Position numbers and translations under genes: made by a program
The notes under the pieces: model-generated
The model's input: the letters and a program-made list of their open reading frames with translations, nothing else
The model's database searches: none
What the model was told of the DNA's origin: nothing
Virus record (IMG/VR): IMGVR_UViG_3300044846_005772
Strand: one strand, 5' to 3'
DNA: 64,000 nucleotides
Source: a virus
Taxonomy: Duplodnaviria; Heunggongvirae; Uroviricota; Caudoviricetes
Shown: piece by piece, positions 3,601 to 52,362 of the stretch
Position numbering within the stretch: position 1 is the first letter of the stretch
Layout of the letters: each line of letters opens with the position of its first letter

Positions 3601-5025
3601 ATGGAAGACATTCAAAAAACGATTAAAAAGCTAGACTTAAAGCAAAATGCTATCAAGATCTTAATTAATTCTATATACGGAGCTTTTGGAAACAAATGGT
3701 TCTATTTCTATAATCCAGACATAGCACAATCAATTACTCTACAGGGCCAAGATCTTATCAAATTCTCAATCAAAGCAGTAAACCACTATTTTGCGGAGAA
3801 ATGGCATCTTGACTCTGAACTTCATGAAAAATTAGGAATATCTGGTTATAAAATTAATAAGATTGAAGAAGAAGCTGCAATTTACACAGACACTGACTCA
3901 ATCTACGTGCAATTCGATCCTGCTTTAAAATCAATTGAAGGTTATAATCCAGACAATGAAGAAGCTCTTAAGTTATGTATTGCAATTGATGATCTTAGAC
4001 TCTCTAGTTACTTTGATGCGTGCTTTGAGAAATATGGAAAAGTATTCAACACCAAGAATCGTTTGAAATTTAAACTTGAAAATCTTTCAGAACGTGGACT
4101 ATGGTTGAAGAAAAAGAATTATGTTATCAAGGTTTCGTATGAACCTAACTCAAAGCTTGAAGTTATTCCTAAAGATAAACGATATTTGATTATCAAGGGA
4201 CTTGAACCAGTTAAGAGCTCATATCCTACTTGGGCACGCGAACATCTCAAAAAGATGACTGACTATTTGCTTGCTCTCGGTCGTAACTTAAATTTAGAGC
4301 AAGATCTTATTCCTAAACTTCGTTCTCTTAAGGATGAGTTCAATACTCTCCATATTGAAGATATTGCGTTCAACTTCAACATCAGAGTTTACAACAAGTA
4401 CGTAGGTAGCGAGGAGAAACTCGACCTTAAGAAAGGAATATCGATCTTTCCTAGAGCAGCTGCATACCACAATCACCTTCTAATTAAGAAAGGACTGGAT
4501 CAGAAATACTCAAAGATCAGAGAAAAAGATAAAATTAAGTTTTACTATTGCGCTCCAAATGAGCATGAATTTGATGTGTTTGCGTATGTTCCTCAAGTAT
4601 TTCCTGATGAGATTGCTCCACCGATCGATCGAGATCTGCAATTCTTCAATTTAATAGTTGAACCTTTGAACAGGCAGCTCGAAGCAATGGGTGTAAACTC
4701 ACTAACTCCCGACCTAACTCGTCAAGTGGATTTCGTAAAGACTAAAACTAAGAAAGAGATTAAGGAGTCTGACTTCTTCCCGTTATACGTTATTAATAGA
4801 GCAACCTTGGAAACCAGCGAAGTTCCGGAGAAATTTTGGAAAGTTATCGGAAATCCAGAAGCTAAGGTATCCGATGATGATTTTGGCGAGTACTTGGCAA
4901 CTATTACGAGATATGGACTAAATTCAACTATTGTTCCAAAGATAGATCTTGAAAAGTACAAGAAGAAACTTATCAAGAAGATGGAGGAACCAATAGTTGA
5001 GGAGGTTGAGGAAAATGAAGATTGA
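3601..5025 (+). CDS. family B DNA polymerase, C-terminal fragment (motif B, motif C, thumb)
   Basis: N-terminus is KILINSIYGAFG (motif B, Kx3NSxYG); IYTDTDSIYV is motif C. An in-frame TAA lies 2 codons upstream of the ATG. No exonuclease domain or motif A is present. Confidence 0.8.
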   Translation: MEDIQKTIKKLDLKQNAIKILINSIYGAFGNKWFYFYNPDIAQSITLQGQDLIKFSIKAVNHYFAEKWHLDSELHEKLGISGYKINKIEEEAAIYTDTDSIYVQFDPALKSIEGYNPDNEEALKLCIAIDDLRLSSYFDACFEKYGKVFNTKNRLKFKLENLSERGLWLKKKNYVIKVSYEPNSKLEVIPKDKRYLIIKGLEPVKSSYPTWAREHLKKMTDYLLALGRNLNLEQDLIPKLRSLKDEFNTLHIEDIAFNFNIRVYNKYVGSEEKLDLKKGISIFPRAAAYHNHLLIKKGLDQKYSKIREKDKIKFYYCAPNEHEFDVFAYVPQVFPDEIAPPIDRDLQFFNLIVEPLNRQLEAMGVNSLTPDLTRQVDFVKTKTKKEIKESDFFPLYVINRATLETSEVPEKFWKVIGNPEAKVSDDDFGEYLATITRYGLNSTIVPKIDLEKYKKKLIKKMEEPIVEEVEENED

Positions 5026-6166
5026 TTTTCAAATGATGACTGGTTCCAAGTATGAAATAAGCGAGTTTATTAAGGATGTTCTTAAAGTTAGATTTCCAAA
5101 ATCTCCTCTAAAGCAAGAGATAAACGATGAGGATCCTGATAAAATCAATTTCGCATGTCCATACTGTGGAGATTCTGAAAAGGATCAGAACAAGAAGAGA
5201 GGTAATCTCTACTTGACCACCAAAACCTACAAGTGTTTTAATGATGGTTGCATGAAATGGGTTCCATTAAAGACCTTCATTTCTAATTTTGCAAGTAAAT
5301 ATGCATTAAGTATCCCTGATCTCGAGCTTCAAAGAACTGTTGATACTTCAAAAACTAAAGAACGAGAACTAAACATCATAGAGTTTTTAGTAGATAGGCG
5401 AATCGGAGATTCATTATTAAGCATAGAACAAGTAGCTTCTCGATTTTCTCTAACGCCTTGTGCTGAAGCGGAAATTGATTCTCCGATATATGAATACATT
5501 ACTAACCGTAAGTTAAATCATCTACCCGCTTTTGAGAAAAGCTGTTACTTTGATTCTAGAGAAGACAAAATCTATCTTTTTAATTTAGATAATTCATCCG
5601 GTAAAATATTAGGATTTGCTATTCGTCGAATTAGTAATGATTGGAAGGGGCCAAGATACGATATCCGAAACTATTCGGAATTGCAGAAGAGCGGATTAGT
5701 TCGAAGTATTAGCGATGAGTTTTTAGAAAAAATAAATTCAGTAAACAATTTCTTTAATATTTTAAACGTTGACTTTTCAAAACCTATTATGATAACTGAA
5801 GGTCAAATCGACTCAATGTTTCTAAACAATAGCATAGCAACTACTGGAGTAACTAAGAGCAAGAAGATCTTGGGAACCATTGTTAGCAAGAAGAATGCAA
5901 GAATCTTATTTGATCGTGACTCTGCAGGTAAAGGTGAAATGATTGATCTAATAAAGCAAGGCTACAAAGTTTTTCTTTGGAATAAACTAACGTATGATCT
6001 TCGACTAAAACATATGGGAAAATCGAAAGAGATTGATCTTATTAAAGATATTAATGATCTATATCGTTTTTTATCAGAATATGATAGCTCGATGGATTAC
6101 CAAAAATTCAATGTAGTAATCGAACAGTATTTCTCAGAGACAGCCTTCGACCTTATCTTTATCTAA
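5015..6166 (+). CDS. DnaG-like DNA primase (zinc ribbon + TOPRIM)
   Basis: Zinc ribbon CPYCGDS...CFNDGC. TOPRIM motifs ITEGQIDSMF (Glu) and LFDRDSAGKG (DxD). Start chosen at the ATG that overlaps the polymerase stop. Confidence 0.7.
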   Translation: MKIDFQMMTGSKYEISEFIKDVLKVRFPKSPLKQEINDEDPDKINFACPYCGDSEKDQNKKRGNLYLTTKTYKCFNDGCMKWVPLKTFISNFASKYALSIPDLELQRTVDTSKTKERELNIIEFLVDRRIGDSLLSIEQVASRFSLTPCAEAEIDSPIYEYITNRKLNHLPAFEKSCYFDSREDKIYLFNLDNSSGKILGFAIRRISNDWKGPRYDIRNYSELQKSGLVRSISDEFLEKINSVNNFFNILNVDFSKPIMITEGQIDSMFLNNSIATTGVTKSKKILGTIVSKKNARILFDRDSAGKGEMIDLIKQGYKVFLWNKLTYDLRLKHMGKSKEIDLIKDINDLYRFLSEYDSSMDYQKFNVVIEQYFSETAFDLIFI

Positions 6167-46482: not shown

Positions 46483-46692
46483 ATGATGGAAAACTTGGCT
46501 ACCATACGCGTCGATATGGTCAAGAATTGATTGATGGTTGGTTCCCCATCACCTGATGCCGTGCACAGCAGAGCAGGATCTCCTACATAACAACCCGGGG
46601 CATGATTACTCTCCGTTAAGGTTGCGATCCTCTGAGAGCCGGGTTCTCTTTCAACGGTGCTAATCCGTCCTATGTTAGCTGTTTTCCATTTG

Positions 46693-46829
46693 TAGTCAGG
46701 ACAGGAATCGAACCTGCATAAGTGTTACTGTGCTTCGCACTCCATTTGGTTATTATCAGGCTTTGTGTGAGGTCGCATCTCGTGCTAAACTGTTTTACCC
46801 AAATGACGTTACCATTCCGCCACCTGACT
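46693..46829 (-). tRNA. tRNA-like element 1 (class II ends, 137 nt, aberrant core)
   Basis: 5' AGTCAGGTGGCGGAATGGTAACG and 3' CAGGTTCGATTCCTGTCCTGACTA; no canonical anticodon arm is foldable by eye. Confidence 0.3.
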
Positions 46830-46983: not shown

Positions 46984-47085
46984 TAGTCAGGACAGGATTC
47001 GAACCTGTATGAGATGGTCAAAGCTTTCGCTGCATCTTACGTGGAACTTTGCGGGATCCTGCGTCTACCATTCCGCCACCTGACT
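46984..47085 (-). tRNA. tRNA-like element 2 (102 nt)
   Basis: Same ends (GCGGAATGGTAGACGC D-arm, ACAGG-TTCGAAT-CCTGT T-arm). Candidate anticodon arm GGATC-CCGCAAA-GTTCC has a mismatch and C33. Confidence 0.3.
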
Positions 47086-47161
47086 ATGTTGTTTAGTGGG
47101 ACTCATACCACCATGCTTCATTGCCTTGTATCATGTTTTTTGTTTAAGTTAATTTGTTTAG

Positions 47162-47273
47162 TAGTCAGGACAGGATTCGAACCTGTAAATCTCCAAAATA
47201 AAACTATCTCGAGTTCATTTTATTTCTTAAGGAGTCCATTAGATGGAGCGTCTACCAGTTCCGCCACCTGACT
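47162..47273 (-). tRNA. tRNA-like element 3 (112 nt)
   Basis: Same ends; the core contains a TCCAT-CTA-ATGGA hairpin instead of an anticodon arm. Confidence 0.3.
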
Positions 47274-47279
47274 ATTGTT

Positions 47280-47552
47280 TTACTTACTTACGTAATCCAT
47301 CATCTCACGCATCTTAAGAATCAGCAATTCCATCTCATCCTTATTGAGATACATCCTTGAACTTCCAGTCTTGTCGTCTAACTCCTTGGTTTCCACGATA
47401 ATTCCATTGAACCCCTCGGTTGGATATACATCAACGTTCTGCTCTTCAGTTGCGATTACGACTTTGTGCCAAACTTTATTTTTCATAGCTCTATTTTTAT
47501 TAGTAGTCAGGACAGGATTCGAACCTGTAACCGTAGCAGAGACGGTGCACAT
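47280..47552 (-). CDS. hypothetical protein between tRNA-like elements
   Basis: ORF. Confidence 0.4.
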   Translation of the reverse strand: MCTVSATVTGSNPVLTTNKNRAMKNKVWHKVVIATEEQNVDVYPTEGFNGIIVETKELDDKTGSSRMYLNKDEMELLILKMREMMDYVSK

Positions 47553-47590
47553 CGGGAGGAAACAGCGTCTACCAATTCCGCCACCTGACT
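47504..47590 (-). tRNA. tRNA-like element 4 (87 nt, class II length; anticodon loop CTCCCGA)
   Basis: Segment lengths fit a class II tRNA exactly (GCGGAATTGGTAGACGC; variable arm ACCGT-CTCTGCT-ACGGT; discriminator A). The anticodon stem GTTTC/TGTGC pairs poorly. Confidence 0.4.
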
Positions 47591-47593
47591 ATA

Positions 47594-47881
47594 TTATTCG
47601 CTGCACGGCTGGAACCATGCTTCCCGCTGCACGTATCTCTGACTTAGGGACAGCTGATCCAAGGAGAATGACGCCACCTCGGACTCCACTATAGTAAATT
47701 CAAATCCGTCCTGCACATAGGTCTCAACATGCTTTACCTTTCTGCCCAGCTTACTGGGAAAGTAGGGTCCAAAATTACCCAAAGTCCTGTACACGCCAGA
47801 CCCAATCAAAATCTCCTTGGCCTGTTGCATCTCACCAGCCTGTTCAGCACGGCCGTTAACGTATAACTTAGCAGCTCCCAT
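47594..47881 (-). CDS. hypothetical protein (first GC-rich gene)
   Basis: ORF; composition shifts here. Confidence 0.4.
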   Translation of the reverse strand: MGAAKLYVNGRAEQAGEMQQAKEILIGSGVYRTLGNFGPYFPSKLGRKVKHVETYVQDGFEFTIVESEVASFSLDQLSLSQRYVQREAWFQPCSE

Positions 47882-48014
47882 ATCTTTTTACTTTTAACTA
47901 ATATACACAAGTATCCTGCTAGATTAAAAAAGAAAATTGGTTAAATTAGCCAGGTAGCAGAGACCACAATAGAATACCCCTTGATCAGGACAGGTATAGA
48001 GACACCTGGAAAAC

Positions 48015-48072
48015 AAGTGCACCAGCTAGCCAACGTAAGTACACCAGCTGTCAGGAATAAGTGCACCAGCTA
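48015..48072. repeat. three 14-15 bp direct repeats (iteron-like): AAGTGCACCAGCTAG / AAGTACACCAGCTG / AAGTGCACCAGCTAG
   Basis: Read directly; ~22 bp spacing. Confidence 0.75.
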
Positions 48073-48137
48073 GGGGACCCATGCTACACCAGACCAGGCA
48101 GCAGACAGTACCCCGTGTCATGCAACCCTACCTCCGT

Positions 48138-48206
48138 GCCATGTCACCACCATGTCACCACCATGTCACCACCATGTCACCATCATGTCATCGCCATGTC
48201 ATCGCC
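48138..48206. repeat. 11-bp tandem repeat array, about 6 copies of C(A/G)CCATGTCA(C/T)
   Basis: Read directly. ORF-track peptides here (MSPPCHHHV...) are repeat artefacts. Confidence 0.8.
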
Positions 48207-48395
48207 TACAAAAAGCATATACTATTTTGCAAGTATGGGCGCCTCTTACTACGGAGTCCCATTCTGGGTGCCCAGAGGACAACAGGATGCAGCGAGCCTT
48301 GGGGGTAGCGCCTCGAGGGCGATCCATGGCGATCCACCAGGTGTTCCTGCACGGATAAATAACTAAAAGCGCGCGGAGCCGGGACTACGGAGTCC

Positions 48396-49100
48396 GTGCA
48401 GGAGGGCAGAATTATGTACAGGCACGAAGCAGTGGAATACTTGGGGGTCACCTACTCCAAGTTTAGGCGCATGGTGAACAACGGTAACATCAGGTTTACC
48501 GACATGCCGGGTAATCGCAGGATCTATTGGGACGAGGACATCTACCGGGTAGCAGGTAGGCGTAAGGGGCAGAGCGCTAACCAATGCGTGCTCTACTGTC
48601 GGGCCGGCGGCAAACGCGCTAAGACGCTCTTACAGGAACAGAAGCTCCGGTGCACGCGTTGGGCGACCGAGAACGGGTATAGCTTTGACAGGATCTACGA
48701 GGAGTCTGCTCTATCTCAGGACTGGGAAGCCGAACGTCGACCCGCCTTCTACGAGTTACTCAAAGACTGTAGGGACGGTCAGATTAGCATGGTGGTCGTG
48801 GAGACCCCGTGCAGGCTCTCTCGCTGGCACCTGCCCCTCTTCATGAATATCTTGGATTCCTATAACGTGAATCTCTTTATCATCAACAGGCTAGTACAAC
48901 AGCCGGAGTATCTACAGGAACAGGTGGAGGAACTCGTATGGATTACTGAGGAAGCGCAACGACAACGTGAGAATGGCTGGGCGCCGCGCAAGATGCTGGA
49001 GGCGAAGAAGCGCCGTGACAGGGGCCAGGTAATCTGGGCGAAACCCAATCCCGAGATGGGGCACGATCCTGATCAGCACGCGCTTGGCGATCTACTCTAA
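48396..49100 (+). CDS. N-terminal HTH (MerR/excisionase-like) + serine-recombinase-fold domain lacking the catalytic Ser
   Basis: VLYCRAGG in place of YxRVSS. Resolvase-like blocks GYSFDRIYEE, RPAFYELL and ISMVVVETPCRLSR. IS607-TnpA-like domain order. Confidence 0.5.
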   Translation: MQEGRIMYRHEAVEYLGVTYSKFRRMVNNGNIRFTDMPGNRRIYWDEDIYRVAGRRKGQSANQCVLYCRAGGKRAKTLLQEQKLRCTRWATENGYSFDRIYEESALSQDWEAERRPAFYELLKDCRDGQISMVVVETPCRLSRWHLPLFMNILDSYNVNLFIINRLVQQPEYLQEQVEELVWITEEAQRQRENGWAPRKMLEAKKRRDRGQVIWAKPNPEMGHDPDQHALGDLL

Positions 49101-49283
49101 GCCGGGACTACGGAGTCCGCCGGAAACGCGTCCTGCACGGTCGAGCCCCGATTCCCATGGTACAGGAGCCACTACGGAGTCCCGACGGGCAGGGGCCCAG
49201 CTCTCCCGTACGGGCGCCCGCGGGTAGGAGCCAAAAAAAGGGAGCGCTCGGCTCCCATGGGTTTACTACGGAGTAGACTCTAG

Positions 49284-49889
49284 TTATGCTGGAAAGTTCT
49301 TCTTGATCTGACCACGAATGATCCTTTCCTGGGTGTATTCATTGACGTCAGTGATCTCCTCGTTTACTCGACGAGCTAGCTCTGCATCGATGTTGCCGTC
49401 CCATGATCCTTCAACCATCGCGTTGACCAGGCTGTAACTACCCGATATATCTTCGATCGTGTTCTCCCTTTCGTTATTGGTCCAATCAACCGCAACGTTA
49501 AACCAGAAACCTACTGACAGGTACTTCTCGTCGGGATACATTGCATCGAACTCAGCATCTCCTGTCTGGGTGGGAAATACTAGCAGGTCCAAGCCGGCCT
49601 CGCTACTGCTGCTCGATTCGTTTGCCATGTCGGTCAGAGCCGAATCTCCCCATGGACCTTCAACCAGCTCAACTCCTACCAGGGTCAGGTCGTTTGGTAT
49701 GTTGGCCAGGCCCTTCGCGGCATGGATGCATAGTTGATTACACATTTCATTTATCGCATCTCTCTGCTCTTGGCTGAGGTCGTCATGCCAGTTAAGCTGA
49801 TTACCTACTACCTTGAATAGGGTAGGGAAACTAGACCAATCTACGGAGTGGCTCTTCTCGTTCTCCAGGATGGGTTTAATGTACTTCAT
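49284..49889 (-). CDS. hypothetical protein (201 aa)
   Basis: ORF, GC-rich; contains one CTACGGAGTGG motif in frame (HSVD). Confidence 0.5.
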   Translation of the reverse strand: MKYIKPILENEKSHSVDWSSFPTLFKVVGNQLNWHDDLSQEQRDAINEMCNQLCIHAAKGLANIPNDLTLVGVELVEGPWGDSALTDMANESSSSSEAGLDLLVFPTQTGDAEFDAMYPDEKYLSVGFWFNVAVDWTNNERENTIEDISGSYSLVNAMVEGSWDGNIDAELARRVNEEITDVNEYTQERIIRGQIKKNFPA

Positions 49890-49930
49890 TAGTTCTTCTA
49901 TTTGATAATATTTATCTGTTCTATCTAAAC

Positions 49931-49953
49931 AAAGAAAGGGCCCGAAGGCCCTT
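49931..49953 (-). terminator. rho-independent terminator
   Basis: gggcc-cgaa-ggccc with flanking A and T runs. Confidence 0.6.
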
Positions 49954-49970
49954 CCTCTGATTATGATAGG

Positions 49971-51146
49971 TTACAGGTTAGCGTACTGTGCGAATTCCAA
50001 ATCGTATCCTGCACGGGTTCCCTTAGCGAATAGGGTGCCAGCGTCCTGCTTCAGCTCGGCCTTGCCGTTAAGTTCGAAGCCAGAGTTGTTTGATCCCAAG
50101 AAGGTAAGAGAGTTCACAACGTCCCAGATCGACATGCCGGTCTTGACGAAACTCTTCTGCTTCTCTCCCAATCGCATTGGGTCTTGGCCCTTCTGCACGA
50201 TGCGTGCCATTGTACGAGAGTAGCCAGGGAAGTACTGATCCGCGATCGAAGAGTTATAGATCTTCTTCAAATCAGGATCGATCTCGACCAACATGCTCTG
50301 CGACTTACGCATGGCGTTCTCCACTTCCAACAGGCTGGCCTTGGTCTCAACAGCTCGGTTCAAGGTGGAGCCGAATGCAGTCGGTACGAAGCCGGCTTTC
50401 TCCATGTCCCCGATCTTGTTAAGGAAGATCTTAATCTCCTCGGCACTGGTGCCTCCTAAGCGAAAGTTCTCGCTGAAGTTAAGTTCTCTGTTGCCGCCGA
50501 TCGCACCTTGTCCTAGGCTAACCCGTAGGCCATTAGAACATACTAATCGCTGGTTGTATGACTCAGCATAAGTATCACGGTTGGTCTGCACGATCGAGAA
50601 ACCGAACTTAAAGAACTCGTCCTTACCTGCCTGAGCGAAGCCAACTTCCTGGTTGTTCAAGAGGTTCACGCTCACGTTGTTGGTGTAGGGATCCACATCG
50701 ATCGTCTCAATCATCAGGCTCGGAGTGTCGTTCAACAGGCGCTCTGTGATATCGAAGACAGTATCGTTAGAGATCTTACGGAAGTTCTTGGGTGCGCAGA
50801 TATCAACGATCAACTTCGTGTTAGGATTAGCAATCAACATTACTTCGCCCTTGCCCTTCTGCGCACGGTAATCCTTGAGAGCGTTGATCAGGTGCACCGC
50901 GATCTTGTCATCGGAGTTCTTCATGAACTCGCTAGTAAAGCTACGGTTCAACTTCAGCATCGACGCCAAACGATGGAAGAAGGAATCGCTAACGCCCACA
51001 GGAACGCCGCCGATTTCGATCTTACCCTTACGTAGGGAGTCAGATGTCATGTTGATTGAGGAGATGGGCACGATCTTGGTGGCCTTCTCGGTACGGTTAA
51101 GCGTGTCTCGCATTTCCGTAAATTGTTCTTGAGTTACCTGTTTCAT
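49971..51146 (-). CDS. DUF932-like phage/plasmid protein (391 aa)
   Basis: Size and an RLVCSNG motif recalled for DUF932/TIGR03299; from memory only. Confidence 0.4.
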   Translation of the reverse strand: MKQVTQEQFTEMRDTLNRTEKATKIVPISSINMTSDSLRKGKIEIGGVPVGVSDSFFHRLASMLKLNRSFTSEFMKNSDDKIAVHLINALKDYRAQKGKGEVMLIANPNTKLIVDICAPKNFRKISNDTVFDITERLLNDTPSLMIETIDVDPYTNNVSVNLLNNQEVGFAQAGKDEFFKFGFSIVQTNRDTYAESYNQRLVCSNGLRVSLGQGAIGGNRELNFSENFRLGGTSAEEIKIFLNKIGDMEKAGFVPTAFGSTLNRAVETKASLLEVENAMRKSQSMLVEIDPDLKKIYNSSIADQYFPGYSRTMARIVQKGQDPMRLGEKQKSFVKTGMSIWDVVNSLTFLGSNNSGFELNGKAELKQDAGTLFAKGTRAGYDLEFAQYANL

Positions 51147-51219: not shown

Positions 51220-52362
51220 TCAAAGGGTTGCACTCTCTTCCTGCACGGCGGGCTGCTCGTCCTGCTGGGAATCTCCCTCTTGCAGGTCCTCTCCCAACTT
51301 AAAGATCTCCTCGAAGCGGCGGCCCATGTCAACTCGACGAGTCATCTCACTGTTCTCAATCTCTCTCATCTCCTCGGTCTCGTTGAAGCGGTCCACATCG
51401 TACACAACCTGACCTTCTTGTAAGAAGTAGTATAGACGCTTGCCGACCGCACTGCCGCCTCGACGGTTCTTGGAGAACTCGACGTAGCGTTTGCCTGATA
51501 GATCGAATCGGATCTCCAACATCGCTGTGGTTGCGTGCTTGAGGTAGGTTGAGCCGACATATGTACCACCCTTCGTCATGTGTTGGATGGCAAAGACAGC
51601 TGAACCCTTGGTCTCGGCAGAATCGATCATCAAGCCTGTCAACCAAGACTCGGCTCGGGTAGAAGTCCAATGGTGTACTTCCTTGATCTTCACCAACACG
51701 TCCTGATAGGAGTCCAAGATGATGATGTCATAGTCGCCGTTAAACGCCTGTTCCATGATACCCGTTACCTGACCTGACTTCACATAGTCCATCAACAACA
51801 GTGTAGGAACCTTCGCGATGCTTGGCGTCTTCTTGTAATAGAATAAGATATCGTTGCGTGTCATCTCGCTGGAGATGTACAACACTCTAGCATCGGGCTG
51901 CTGTTCCTGAATGCTGGCGATCATGTCCAACATTACGGTTGACTTACCGACACCGGACTCACCGATAACGATATTCACGGTGCCGCCATATGTGCCGCCG
52001 CCTTCCTCATGATCGGAGAACAGGTCGTCGATCTTCTTGCCAGTTCGATAGAGCTTGAAGTTGGGAAACTCCATGTCCTCTACTGTTACTACATTGAGAG
52101 TCAAAGGTTCTTGTGGGACTACGGAGTGAATGACCCCTGGTGCAGCTGCTGGCTCGAGACGCTCCTGGCCGATATGACCTTCTGTGACAATCTTCTTCAA
52201 GACTCCATTAAAGGATGAGTAGCTGATGTCCGCATCGGGCATGTGAGATACGATCTGAGCATGCAGATCCAACACCTTGCCTCTTGGCACTAGTCCATTG
52301 TGTACGTCGTTGAACCATTGACGGATAACCTGTTCCTTTTTACCACCTGTGATTTGTATCAT
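51220..52362 (-). CDS. RecA-fold ATPase (DnaB-C-terminal / AAA_25-like)
   Basis: Walker A GESGVGKST and Walker B IIILDSYQD. Confidence 0.55.
   Translation of the reverse strand: MIQITGGKKEQVIRQWFNDVHNGLVPRGKVLDLHAQIVSHMPDADISYSSFNGVLKKIVTEGHIGQERLEPAAAPGVIHSVVPQEPLTLNVVTVEDMEFPNFKLYRTGKKIDDLFSDHEEGGGTYGGTVNIVIGESGVGKSTVMLDMIASIQEQQPDARVLYISSEMTRNDILFYYKKTPSIAKVPTLLLMDYVKSGQVTGIMEQAFNGDYDIIILDSYQDVLVKIKEVHHWTSTRAESWLTGLMIDSAETKGSAVFAIQHMTKGGTYVGSTYLKHATTAMLEIRFDLSGKRYVEFSKNRRGGSAVGKRLYYFLQEGQVVYDVDRFNETEEMREIENSEMTRRVDMGRRFEEIFKLGEDLQEGDSQQDEQPAVQEESATL

Follow-up and report, generated by a model that had tools for sequence, protein, structure and literature searches.

The window analysed here is a stretch of 64,000 nucleotides from a phage of the class Caudoviricetes (IMG/VR virus record IMGVR_UViG_3300044846_005772), and the locus in question lies at 47.9-49.3 kb, where a repeat-rich intergenic region precedes a gene for a 228-amino-acid (aa) protein that resembles TnpA, the transposase of the IS607 family, and has no serine at the position of the catalytic nucleophile. 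From ~36 kb to 64 kb the genes are nearly all leftward, and the rightward 228-aa gene is a lone inverted gene among them. The locus forms a module that is conserved in a lineage of large, uncultivated phages whose portal is of the T4 type. Its features are given below in the order of their coordinates, "10-mer" denoting a short polar motif that recurs along this part of the window.

47882-48413: intergenic region between a leftward 95-aa open reading frame (ORF; 47594-47881) and the rightward 228-aa ORF (48414-49100)
47882-47960, no strand: AT-rich stretch of 79 bp with 27.8% GC, between the start of the leftward 95-aa gene and the iterons
48015, 48037 and 48059 (13-15 bp each, 22-bp spacing, to 48071), + strand: distal iterons AAGTRCACCAGCT(A)G, exact copies
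~48084-48096, + strand: degenerate fourth iteron ACACCAGACCAGG, with an ACCAG core at ~48088
48139-48204, + strand: 11-bp array, six units CCATGTCAYCN, ~one helical turn apart
48196-48223, + strand: candidate sigma-70-like promoter ATGTCA-16 nt-TATACT, from a consensus scan (9/12 matches), the last array unit serving as -35
48248-48257, + strand: 10-mer copy 1, ACTACGGAGT, at -166 from the ATG
48318-48337, + strand: promoter-proximal pair GGCGATCCAT GGCGATCCAC, period 10 by Tandem Repeats Finder
48354-48362, + strand: GATAAATAA box resembling a T4 late promoter, a consensus match
48377-48396, + strand: first copy of the 20-bp direct repeat AGCCGGGACTACGGAGTCCG, exact, in the 5' leader, 18 nt ahead of the ATG
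48384-48393, + strand: 10-mer copy 2, within the first 20-bp repeat
48414-49100, + strand: gene for the 228-aa serine-less IS607-TnpA-like protein, with AGGAGG 8-9 nt ahead of the ATG
49100-49119, + strand: second copy of AGCCGGGACTACGGAGTCCG, exact, starting at the last base of the stop codon
49107-49116, + strand: 10-mer copy 3, within the second 20-bp repeat
49120-49235, no strand: conserved non-coding block with TCCTGCACGG, CCATGG, 10-mer copy 4, GACGGGCAGGGG and CTCCCGTACGGGC
49171-49180, + strand: 10-mer copy 4, within the downstream block
49230-49256, - strand: intrinsic terminator of the convergent leftward operon, GGGAGCCGAGCGCTCCC followed by T7
49265-49274, + strand: 10-mer copy 5, 9 nt past the stop codon of a leftward 201-aa gene

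The serine-less protein and its family

The initial annotation had described the product as a helix-turn-helix (HTH) domain fused to a serine-recombinase fold in the order seen in IS607 TnpA, and Pfam, PHROG, NCBIfam, AlphaFold2 and Foldseek agree on this description. Pfam identifies the Resolvase domain (PF00239) at residues 59-182 with E 3.2e-13 and, weakly, HTH_17/MerR_1 at residues 5-46, so that an N-terminal MerR/excisionase-like HTH is followed by the catalytic domain, as is typical of IS607; PHROG 6620 ('transposase') is matched with E 1.1e-18, and the NCBIfam model for IS607 transposases (NF033518) with E 8e-23, yet at 80.9 bits, under its curated cut-off of 110. The AlphaFold2 model, built with 76 homologues, has a predicted local distance difference test (pLDDT) score of 79. 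In it a winged helix (residues 1-48) is joined by a linker to a resolvase fold (57-186), which includes a long E helix, and the tail (192-228) is disordered. When this model was compared with the PDB by Foldseek, the best matches were exclusively IS607-family TnpA catalytic domains (3lhk, 3lhf, 3ilx, 6dgc and 6dgb; E 2e-8 to 5e-5, target template modelling scores 0.7-0.79), and the top 22 matches (E <= 0.001) were all serine recombinases.

The loss of the catalytic serine, which had been suspected from the motif alone, holds in the comparison with a protein of known structure as well: in the alignment with MJ0014 (PDB 3lhk) YARVS stands opposite YCRAG, so that the nucleophile Ser is replaced by Gly65, and the AlphaFold2 check confirms the resolvase fold. 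No Ser is present at the nucleophile position or within ~8 residues of it, and Thr71, six residues on, is the sole nearby hydroxyl residue. Furthermore, the motif DRLTR reads CRLSR in this protein. Because the nucleophile is absent, strand exchange by the 228-aa protein is predicted to be negative. The C-terminal tail is disordered and basic, and ends in LGDLL (residues 198-228, 49006-49097). Across the family this C-terminus is strongly conserved and hydrophobic-acidic in character, with DLSDLM in 71 of 120 members, and it recalls the clamp-binding tails of T4 gp43, gp55 and gp33.

An initial search returned just two close relatives (91% and 74% identity), both of which read YCR(A/V)GG, while a profile search seeded with syntenic IMG/VR homologues returned at least 142 protein clusters at E<1e-5, on contigs that reach 213-270 kb. 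In the 76-sequence alignment the nucleophile column holds A in 43 sequences, N in 12, G in 10, P in 5, T in 4 and S in 2. On the other hand, Y61, R63, R109, R134 and R137 are invariant, and four of them (Y61, R63, R134 and R137) correspond to the active-site Tyr6 and to the equivalents of R8, R68 and R71; the Asp that precedes R134 is Cys in the window protein and in 16 of the 76 sequences. In comparisons with the two close relatives, the ratio of nonsynonymous to synonymous substitution rates (dN/dS) comes to 0.057 and 0.11. The nucleophile loss is thus a trait of the family, not decay, and the earlier proposal of an inactivated recombinase retained as a probable DNA-binding protein is borne out by the fold, by the nucleophile loss and by the purifying selection.

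The gene is present in a single copy in the window, and is syntenic in every relative with enough flanking sequence. Its place and orientation beside a DUF932-like gene and a RadA-like ATPase gene are unchanged in the loci L004-L009, L011 and L052-L056, and in L012 and L013, which are without the 391-aa DUF932-like gene, the ATPase gene follows immediately downstream. For a wider comparison we have used 38 IMG/VR loci, 18 serine-less and 20 serine-containing, which are not all independent. None of the 18 serine-less loci has a large ORF downstream, and in the window no same-strand ORF that could be tnpB follows the 228-aa gene; a downstream ORF of 355-564 aa is found at 17 of the 20 serine-containing loci. 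Three of these downstream ORFs have been scanned against Pfam, which identified two as TnpB (OrfB_IS605) and gave no match for the third (533 aa, from L025), which is common to eight loci. When the window protein and the main-clade protein P0006 were compared with the GenBank phage collection by tblastn, only ordinary IS607 transposases at <=34% identity and no member of the family were returned, and in the literature we found no described IS607-type serine transposase without its nucleophile that is conserved as a core syntenic gene.

Repeats and promoter-like elements around the gene

The three direct repeats ~22 bp apart and the roughly six tandem 11-bp copies reported in the initial annotation have both been confirmed, the former at 48015, 48037 and 48059 and the latter, by Tandem Repeats Finder together with a repeat search, at 48139-48204; the polar 10-mer, the 20-bp repeat that brackets the gene and the downstream block were missing from that inventory. 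The distal iteron AAGTRCACCAGCT has no other mismatch-free copy in the 64 kb. Repeats with a period of 22-24 bp and a CCAG core occur at the same place in L021, L052, L054, L055, L009 and L001, with different sequences, and throughout the phage family both iteron-like repeats of this kind and short phased arrays are conserved in this intergenic region. The iteron core CACCAGC (48019-48025 and the two other copies) is the reverse complement of GCTGGTG, which has 7 of the 8 bases of the E. coli Chi sequence, and CTGGT-containing repeats recur in relatives; this likeness, which was noticed by eye, is probably a coincidence, as is a likeness of the promoter-proximal repeats to DnaA boxes. The AT-rich stretch at 47882-47960 is lowest at 0.225 GC in a 40-mer, and the remainder of the module has 53-66% GC; a promoter of the leftward 95-aa gene would also be expected in this stretch.

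The 11-bp array is by far the best tandem repeat of the window (Tandem Repeats Finder: 48139-48201, period 11, 5.7 copies, 92% matches, score 105), and CCATGTC with at most one mismatch additionally occurs at -301 and -90 from the ATG. L056 and L058, which are independent metagenome contigs of the same phage, both stop inside the array, as assemblies typically do when they break at a genuine repeat. L001, with a 91% identical protein, has CCAG-type repeats instead of the array, which is best seen as a lineage-specific expansion of phased sites.

Closer to the gene, the GCGATCCAY pair is kept in L003 and in L001, where two copies stand 20 bp apart, and it sits where other relatives have arrays of TTGCCAY, TGCTCAC or TACTCA. 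The interval from the 10-mer to the ATAAATAA box holds 4-7 phased direct repeats of 7-9 bp in these relatives, often accompanied by one inverted copy; examples are TTGCCAT x5 in L011, TTGCCAC x4 in L017, TGCTCAC x6 in L012 and TACTCAA x4 in L015. The common upstream order, from distal to proximal, is that of 22-24-bp CCAG repeats, 10-mer, short direct repeats at a spacing of 8-13 bp, (G/T)ATAAATAA box and start codon. Moreover, the short repeats vary with the recognition helix of the HTH. Helices NACRKW and NGLRKW go with TTGCCAY (TGCCAC), STVRRY with TGCTCAC/TACTCA (CTCA), and NTLKAW with GCTATCAA; in the clade of the window, SKFRRM goes with GCGATCCAY and CCATGTCAC, which have a CCAYG core in common. 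This correspondence comes from comparing about a dozen loci by eye, and not from a statistical test.

Two promoter-like elements lie in the intergenic region. The sigma-70-like site may act as a promoter, judging by its consensus match; a TATAYA box is kept in L001, and the same scan finds 3 such sites in the window where 2.0 are expected. The (G/T)ATAAATAA box lies 22-91 nt ahead of the start codon in all related loci examined, including those of a second serine-less clade. We have rejected KATAAATAA as a general late promoter, since its 3 copies in the window do not exceed the 3.65 expected, and only its invariance at the locus counts.

The first copy of the 20-bp repeat is contained in an 11-bp perfect inverted repeat (48345-48355 / 48393-48403), and this upstream copy is absent from L003. 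L001 has both copies (277-321 and 1029-1073) and L037 one (160-204), each split by a 30-nt insert. The insertion point is identical in every case, ACTA | insert | CTA(C/G)GGAG, and the insert, which has no Rfam match, forms two hairpins in which the two L001 copies differ by compensatory changes. The expanded 10-mer of L001 and L037, which with its insert would fold as a three-way junction, was also considered as a ribozyme and rejected: its z-scores are -1.4 to -2.1, Rfam gives no match for it, and a hammerhead core is not compatible with the junction strands.

Past the second 20-bp copy, the motifs of the downstream block (across relatives CCATGG, GCGGGCAGGG, CCAGAGAC, CTCCCGTGTACGGG and ACGACGCGCGATAG) recur in L001, L003 and the main clade. 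As a structured RNA the block was rejected, with an RNAalifold covariation term of +0.31, compensatory changes in 1 of 28 pairs and no match in Rfam. Moreover, a sub-block of ~36 bp, CTCCCGTGTACGGGCG...ACGACGCGCGATA, is inverted in L012 and L015 relative to L016, L020 and L004. The block more likely consists of protein-binding DNA motifs. One of its motifs, (C)TCCTGCACGG, has four copies in the window, at 48345-48354 and 49131-49140 on the + strand and at ~60.44 and 61.02 kb on the - strand; one abuts the ATAAATAA box, one follows the 20-bp repeat at the stop codon, and two follow terminators of leftward genes.

The polar 10-mer and the genomic setting

The 10-mer ACTACGGAGT occurs in 14 copies between 46164 and 63088, and the variant TCTACGGAGT at 49840-49849, all on the + strand. 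Counted as CTACGGAGT, it is found 15 times in the window against 0.16 expected, always between 46.1 and 63.1 kb, and five of the copies lie around the gene. Some copies follow the stop codons of leftward genes by 2-9 nt, others precede terminators or TATAAT-like boxes, and others are set within coding sequences. Of the 117 copies at 15 related loci, 32 are situated within 500 bp upstream of the gene and 13 within the first 500 bp of the gene itself. Against a background of 0.21 per 500 bp, the upstream enrichment is about tenfold; most relatives examined have one copy at -125 to -196 upstream of the gene. Within every locus the copies are co-oriented, and they are on the strand of the gene in 17 of the 18 serine-less loci, being all inverted in L019/L008. 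The 10-mer is present in 18/18 serine-less loci and in 0/20 serine-containing IS607 loci, and the second serine-less clade has ACTAGGGAGT, in 4-5 copies, in a tandem array of 57-58 bp upstream of the gene.

One 10-mer of the main clade is intragenic and coincides exactly with the nucleophile position, encoding GTTES there. A serine restored by excision of this in-frame 10-mer from the main-clade genes was considered and rejected, as the residue spacing to the conserved Gln does not fit. The variable linker of the RadA-like ATPase gene keeps a 10-mer in 8 of the 8 relatives checked, where it encodes (H/D)SVV, or GTTES where it is flipped. Because the peptide in this linker differs with the orientation of the motif, the conserved entity appears to be the DNA motif and not the peptide. 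We have also rejected the 10-mer as a hairpin: the complementarity of its flanks is 0.47 against 0.41 and 0.42 against 0.34 in shuffled sequences for the first two pairs, with none beyond them, and we treat it as a sequence motif. A polar motif of such uniform strand is a separate puzzle, of the same kind as Chi, the FtsK-orienting polar sequences (KOPS) and the nick sites of T5.

The base composition of the window jumps at ~42-44 kb, from 35.5% GC over 1-40 kb to 45% over 44-64 kb and up to 66% around the module, and the polar 10-mer is restricted to the GC-richer part. The convergent leftward operon has the order 201-aa gene, 391-aa DUF932-like gene, RadA/Sms-like ATPase gene and, further on, a gene for a sigma-70-type factor. 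The 391-aa protein (49971-51146, -) is highly conserved, with more than 315 clusters and a predicted DUF932/TIGR03299-like fold, and is followed by the RadA/Sms-like ATPase (51220-52362, -). It was considered as a replication factor and set aside, since its model is of modest quality (pLDDT 64) and most resembles DUF932/TIGR03299-like proteins of unknown function. The T4-type portal is nearest to those of metagenomic huge phages, and megablast and blastn searches with 47000-50500 gave no DNA match to known phages.

Several further observations concern the window at large. An Rfam 'freshwater-1' RNA motif is found at gathering score at 46526-46587 (-). Two overlong tRNA-like Rfam matches, of 137 nt at 46693-46829 (-) and 102 nt at 46984-47085 (-), are not called by ARAGORN, and may be tRNA genes with inserts. 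A DNA polymerase match at 3601-5025 (+) is limited to the C-terminal part of the PHROG polymerase profiles, and a 389-aa ORF (4997-6166, +) that ends in AFDLIFI overlaps it downstream; the polymerase of the window may therefore be split or interrupted.

Interpretation of the module and related systems

We regard the module as probably consisting of a domesticated, catalytically dead TnpA of the IS607 family together with the repeats on which it assembles, the whole being autoregulating. Domesticated transposases are well known in eukaryotes; for IS605/IS607-type elements, the domesticated gene is reportedly the partner tnpB, as in TldR. The protein retains a winged-helix DNA-binding domain, a resolvase fold with phosphate-binding arginines and a long E helix for oligomerisation, and without the nucleophile it would be expected to bind and probably bridge DNA, but not to cut or rejoin it. 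The TnpA of IS1535, a member of the IS607 family, nucleates cooperatively on four 9-bp helically phased direct repeats and then spreads, and IS607 ends carry short direct-repeat motifs and an imperfect inverted repeat (PMC6188088). The upstream phased repeats that track the recognition helix fit this known mode of binding. By analogy, dimers may nucleate cooperatively through the winged helix on the GCGATCCAY pair and the 11-bp CCATGTCAC array, and then spread along the DNA to form a cooperative and possibly bridging complex. Since these candidate sites overlap the sigma-70-like promoter and lie just upstream of the invariant ATAAATAA box, autoregulation would be the minimum consequence; an early-to-late switch, the start of replication and DNA organisation are candidates for the role of the whole complex. 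The 22-bp CCAG iterons, the 10-mer and the downstream block do not vary with the recognition helix, and are probably read by another surface of the protein or by other factors.

Several points weigh against this interpretation. The binding of the 228-aa protein to the repeats is proposed by analogy, and the match between helix and repeat rests on a reading by eye of about a dozen loci. The 11-bp array is absent from L001, which has a near-identical HTH, and thus may be a recent lineage-specific expansion and not an essential site. Both promoters are consensus matches, the KATAAATAA box being not enriched and the sigma-70-like sites numbering 3 against 2.0 expected. In addition, three other conserved motif classes of the module are left without a reader.

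The locus had also been proposed as a replication origin or a partition site. In an iteron-type origin the AT-rich stretch would open, the serine-less protein or a partner would serve as the initiator, and the proximal repeats would provide Rep-like autoregulation. The three or four iterons two helical turns apart beside the 79-bp region of 27.8% GC suit such an arrangement, as do the 22-24-bp-period repeats kept at this position in relatives, though their sequences differ, and the direct repeats with an inverted copy at the gene promoter, which match the Rep-iteron-operator layout. The iterons of T4 oriE are 12 nt long and evenly spaced, and the origins of T4 are located at changes of the transcribed strand (PMC3016281), which offers a precedent for the local strand switch formed by the 228-aa gene; the RadA/Sms-like ATPase gene 2 kb off, the conserved hydrophobic-acidic C-terminal tail that resembles T4 clamp-binding epitopes, and the conserved multi-motif assembly site at the locus point in the same direction. 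On the other hand, the 228-aa protein belongs to no known initiator family, and no Rep-family hits were found among its neighbours in Pfam, PHROGs or NCBIfam. The GC skew, which had been suggested as a way to locate the origin, follows gene orientation, with minima at ~4 and 23 kb; at 48 kb its sole irregularity is a blip of 1 kb. Moreover, the polar 10-mer keeps its orientation across the locus, and even in T4 oriE the iterons have no established link to origin activity (PMC3016281). Origin function is plausible, though of low probability. A plasmid-like partition centromere (parC/parS/tubC-like) bound by the adjacent protein is far less credible still: helically phased tandem repeats do lie beside the gene for a DNA-binding protein, but no gene for a ParA-, ParM- or TubZ-type nucleoside triphosphatase (NTPase) occurs within ~4 kb on either side, the nearest ATPase being RadA/Sms-like. 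A partition locus is unlikely because such an NTPase is absent; furthermore, the locus belongs to the genome of a large phage whose portal is T4-type, and the array is not kept in the nearest relative.

Nor does the gene look like part of an IS607 insertion that is still mobile, with another nucleophile, or decaying as a pseudogene. The domain order and fold are of the IS607 type, direct-repeat motifs flank both sides of the gene, and an exact 20-bp repeat brackets it, but no element ends can be defined among these motifs, and since the upstream 20-bp copy is missing in L003, the 20-bp repeats are not element ends. With no nearby Ser, no tnpB, a dN/dS of 0.06-0.11 and a syntenic position in all relatives with enough sequence, this explanation is already largely refuted, and we give it hardly any weight. 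A more unusual proposal concerns the 10-mer, on which the arginine pocket of the resolvase domain might dock, either synapsing or looping the ~20-kb region that carries ACTACGGAGT or acting as a strand-specific nickase. Its co-orientation within each locus, the roughly tenfold enrichment in the 500 bp upstream of the gene, the copy usually found within the gene, its confinement to serine-less loci in the comparison with serine-containing IS607 loci, and the second serine-less clade with its own variant ACTAGGGAGT in 57-58-bp arrays upstream all agree with such engagement, and the 10-mer and the catalytic-pocket residues are constant while the recognition helix varies. The co-occurrence could, however, reflect shared phage ancestry, another conserved phage protein could read the 10-mer, and to our knowledge no serine recombinase hydrolyses DNA or reads 10 bp through its catalytic domain; we thus hold this kind of engagement to be doubtful. 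It is likewise improbable that a phage system not described before is made up of the serine-less transposase and the polar 10-mer ACTA(C/G)GGAGT. If it is, the dead or re-purposed resolvase domain would dock on about one co-oriented site per 1.5-2 kb over a GC-richer segment of ~20 kb, with the repeat-rich region at its own gene as loading centre, and the segment would be synapsed or compacted, or one of its strands marked; such marks, for example site-specific nicks, could be clamp-loading 'enhancers' for T4-type late transcription, an option that would fit the clamp-epitope-like C-terminal tail.

The family of at least 142 clusters and the rich set of conserved motifs offer an entry point to a nucleoprotein machine of uncultivated large phages, which could be an origin, a timing switch or a genome organiser. 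Among known systems, the TnpA proteins of IS607, IS1535 and ISC1926 (6dgb, 6dgc, 3lhk and 3ilx) have the same order of HTH, resolvase domain and E helix, give the best sequence and structure matches, and, as at the ends of IS1535, short helically phased direct repeats lie beside the gene. Unlike them, the window protein lacks the catalytic serine and a tnpB partner, has a fixed syntenic position in a phage, carries an extra disordered basic tail ending in the conserved L(S/G)DL(M/L), and scores under the NCBIfam cut-off, and further conserved motif classes surround its gene. The resolvases of Tn3 and gamma-delta likewise have a serine-recombinase fold and multiple sites directly upstream of their own gene over its promoter, where res serves autoregulation, but in them the domain order is reversed, and the window has phased direct repeats in place of the three inverted-repeat subsites of res, with no catalysis expected.

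Domesticated tnpB (TldR) represents the same idea, i.e. a gene of IS605/IS607 type kept by a phage without catalysis as a sequence-specific DNA binder, with the differences that tnpA is concerned here, that the targeting of TldR is RNA-guided whereas that proposed here is protein-based, and that the function of TldR has been shown experimentally. With the R6K gamma origin and its pi protein the locus shares direct repeats spaced by about two helical turns next to an AT-rich stretch and, in relatives, direct repeats with an inverted copy at the promoter of the gene for a DNA-binding protein, while it differs in having a resolvase fold instead of a winged-helix Rep, no DnaA boxes identified, and a lytic-type phage genome. 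Finally, although its repeats have periods of 22 and 11 bp and the adjacent dead transposase is unrelated to RepEB, the locus shares with T4 oriE (repEA/repEB) the T4-type portal, the evenly spaced syntenic direct repeats and a small gene near a change of the transcribed strand.

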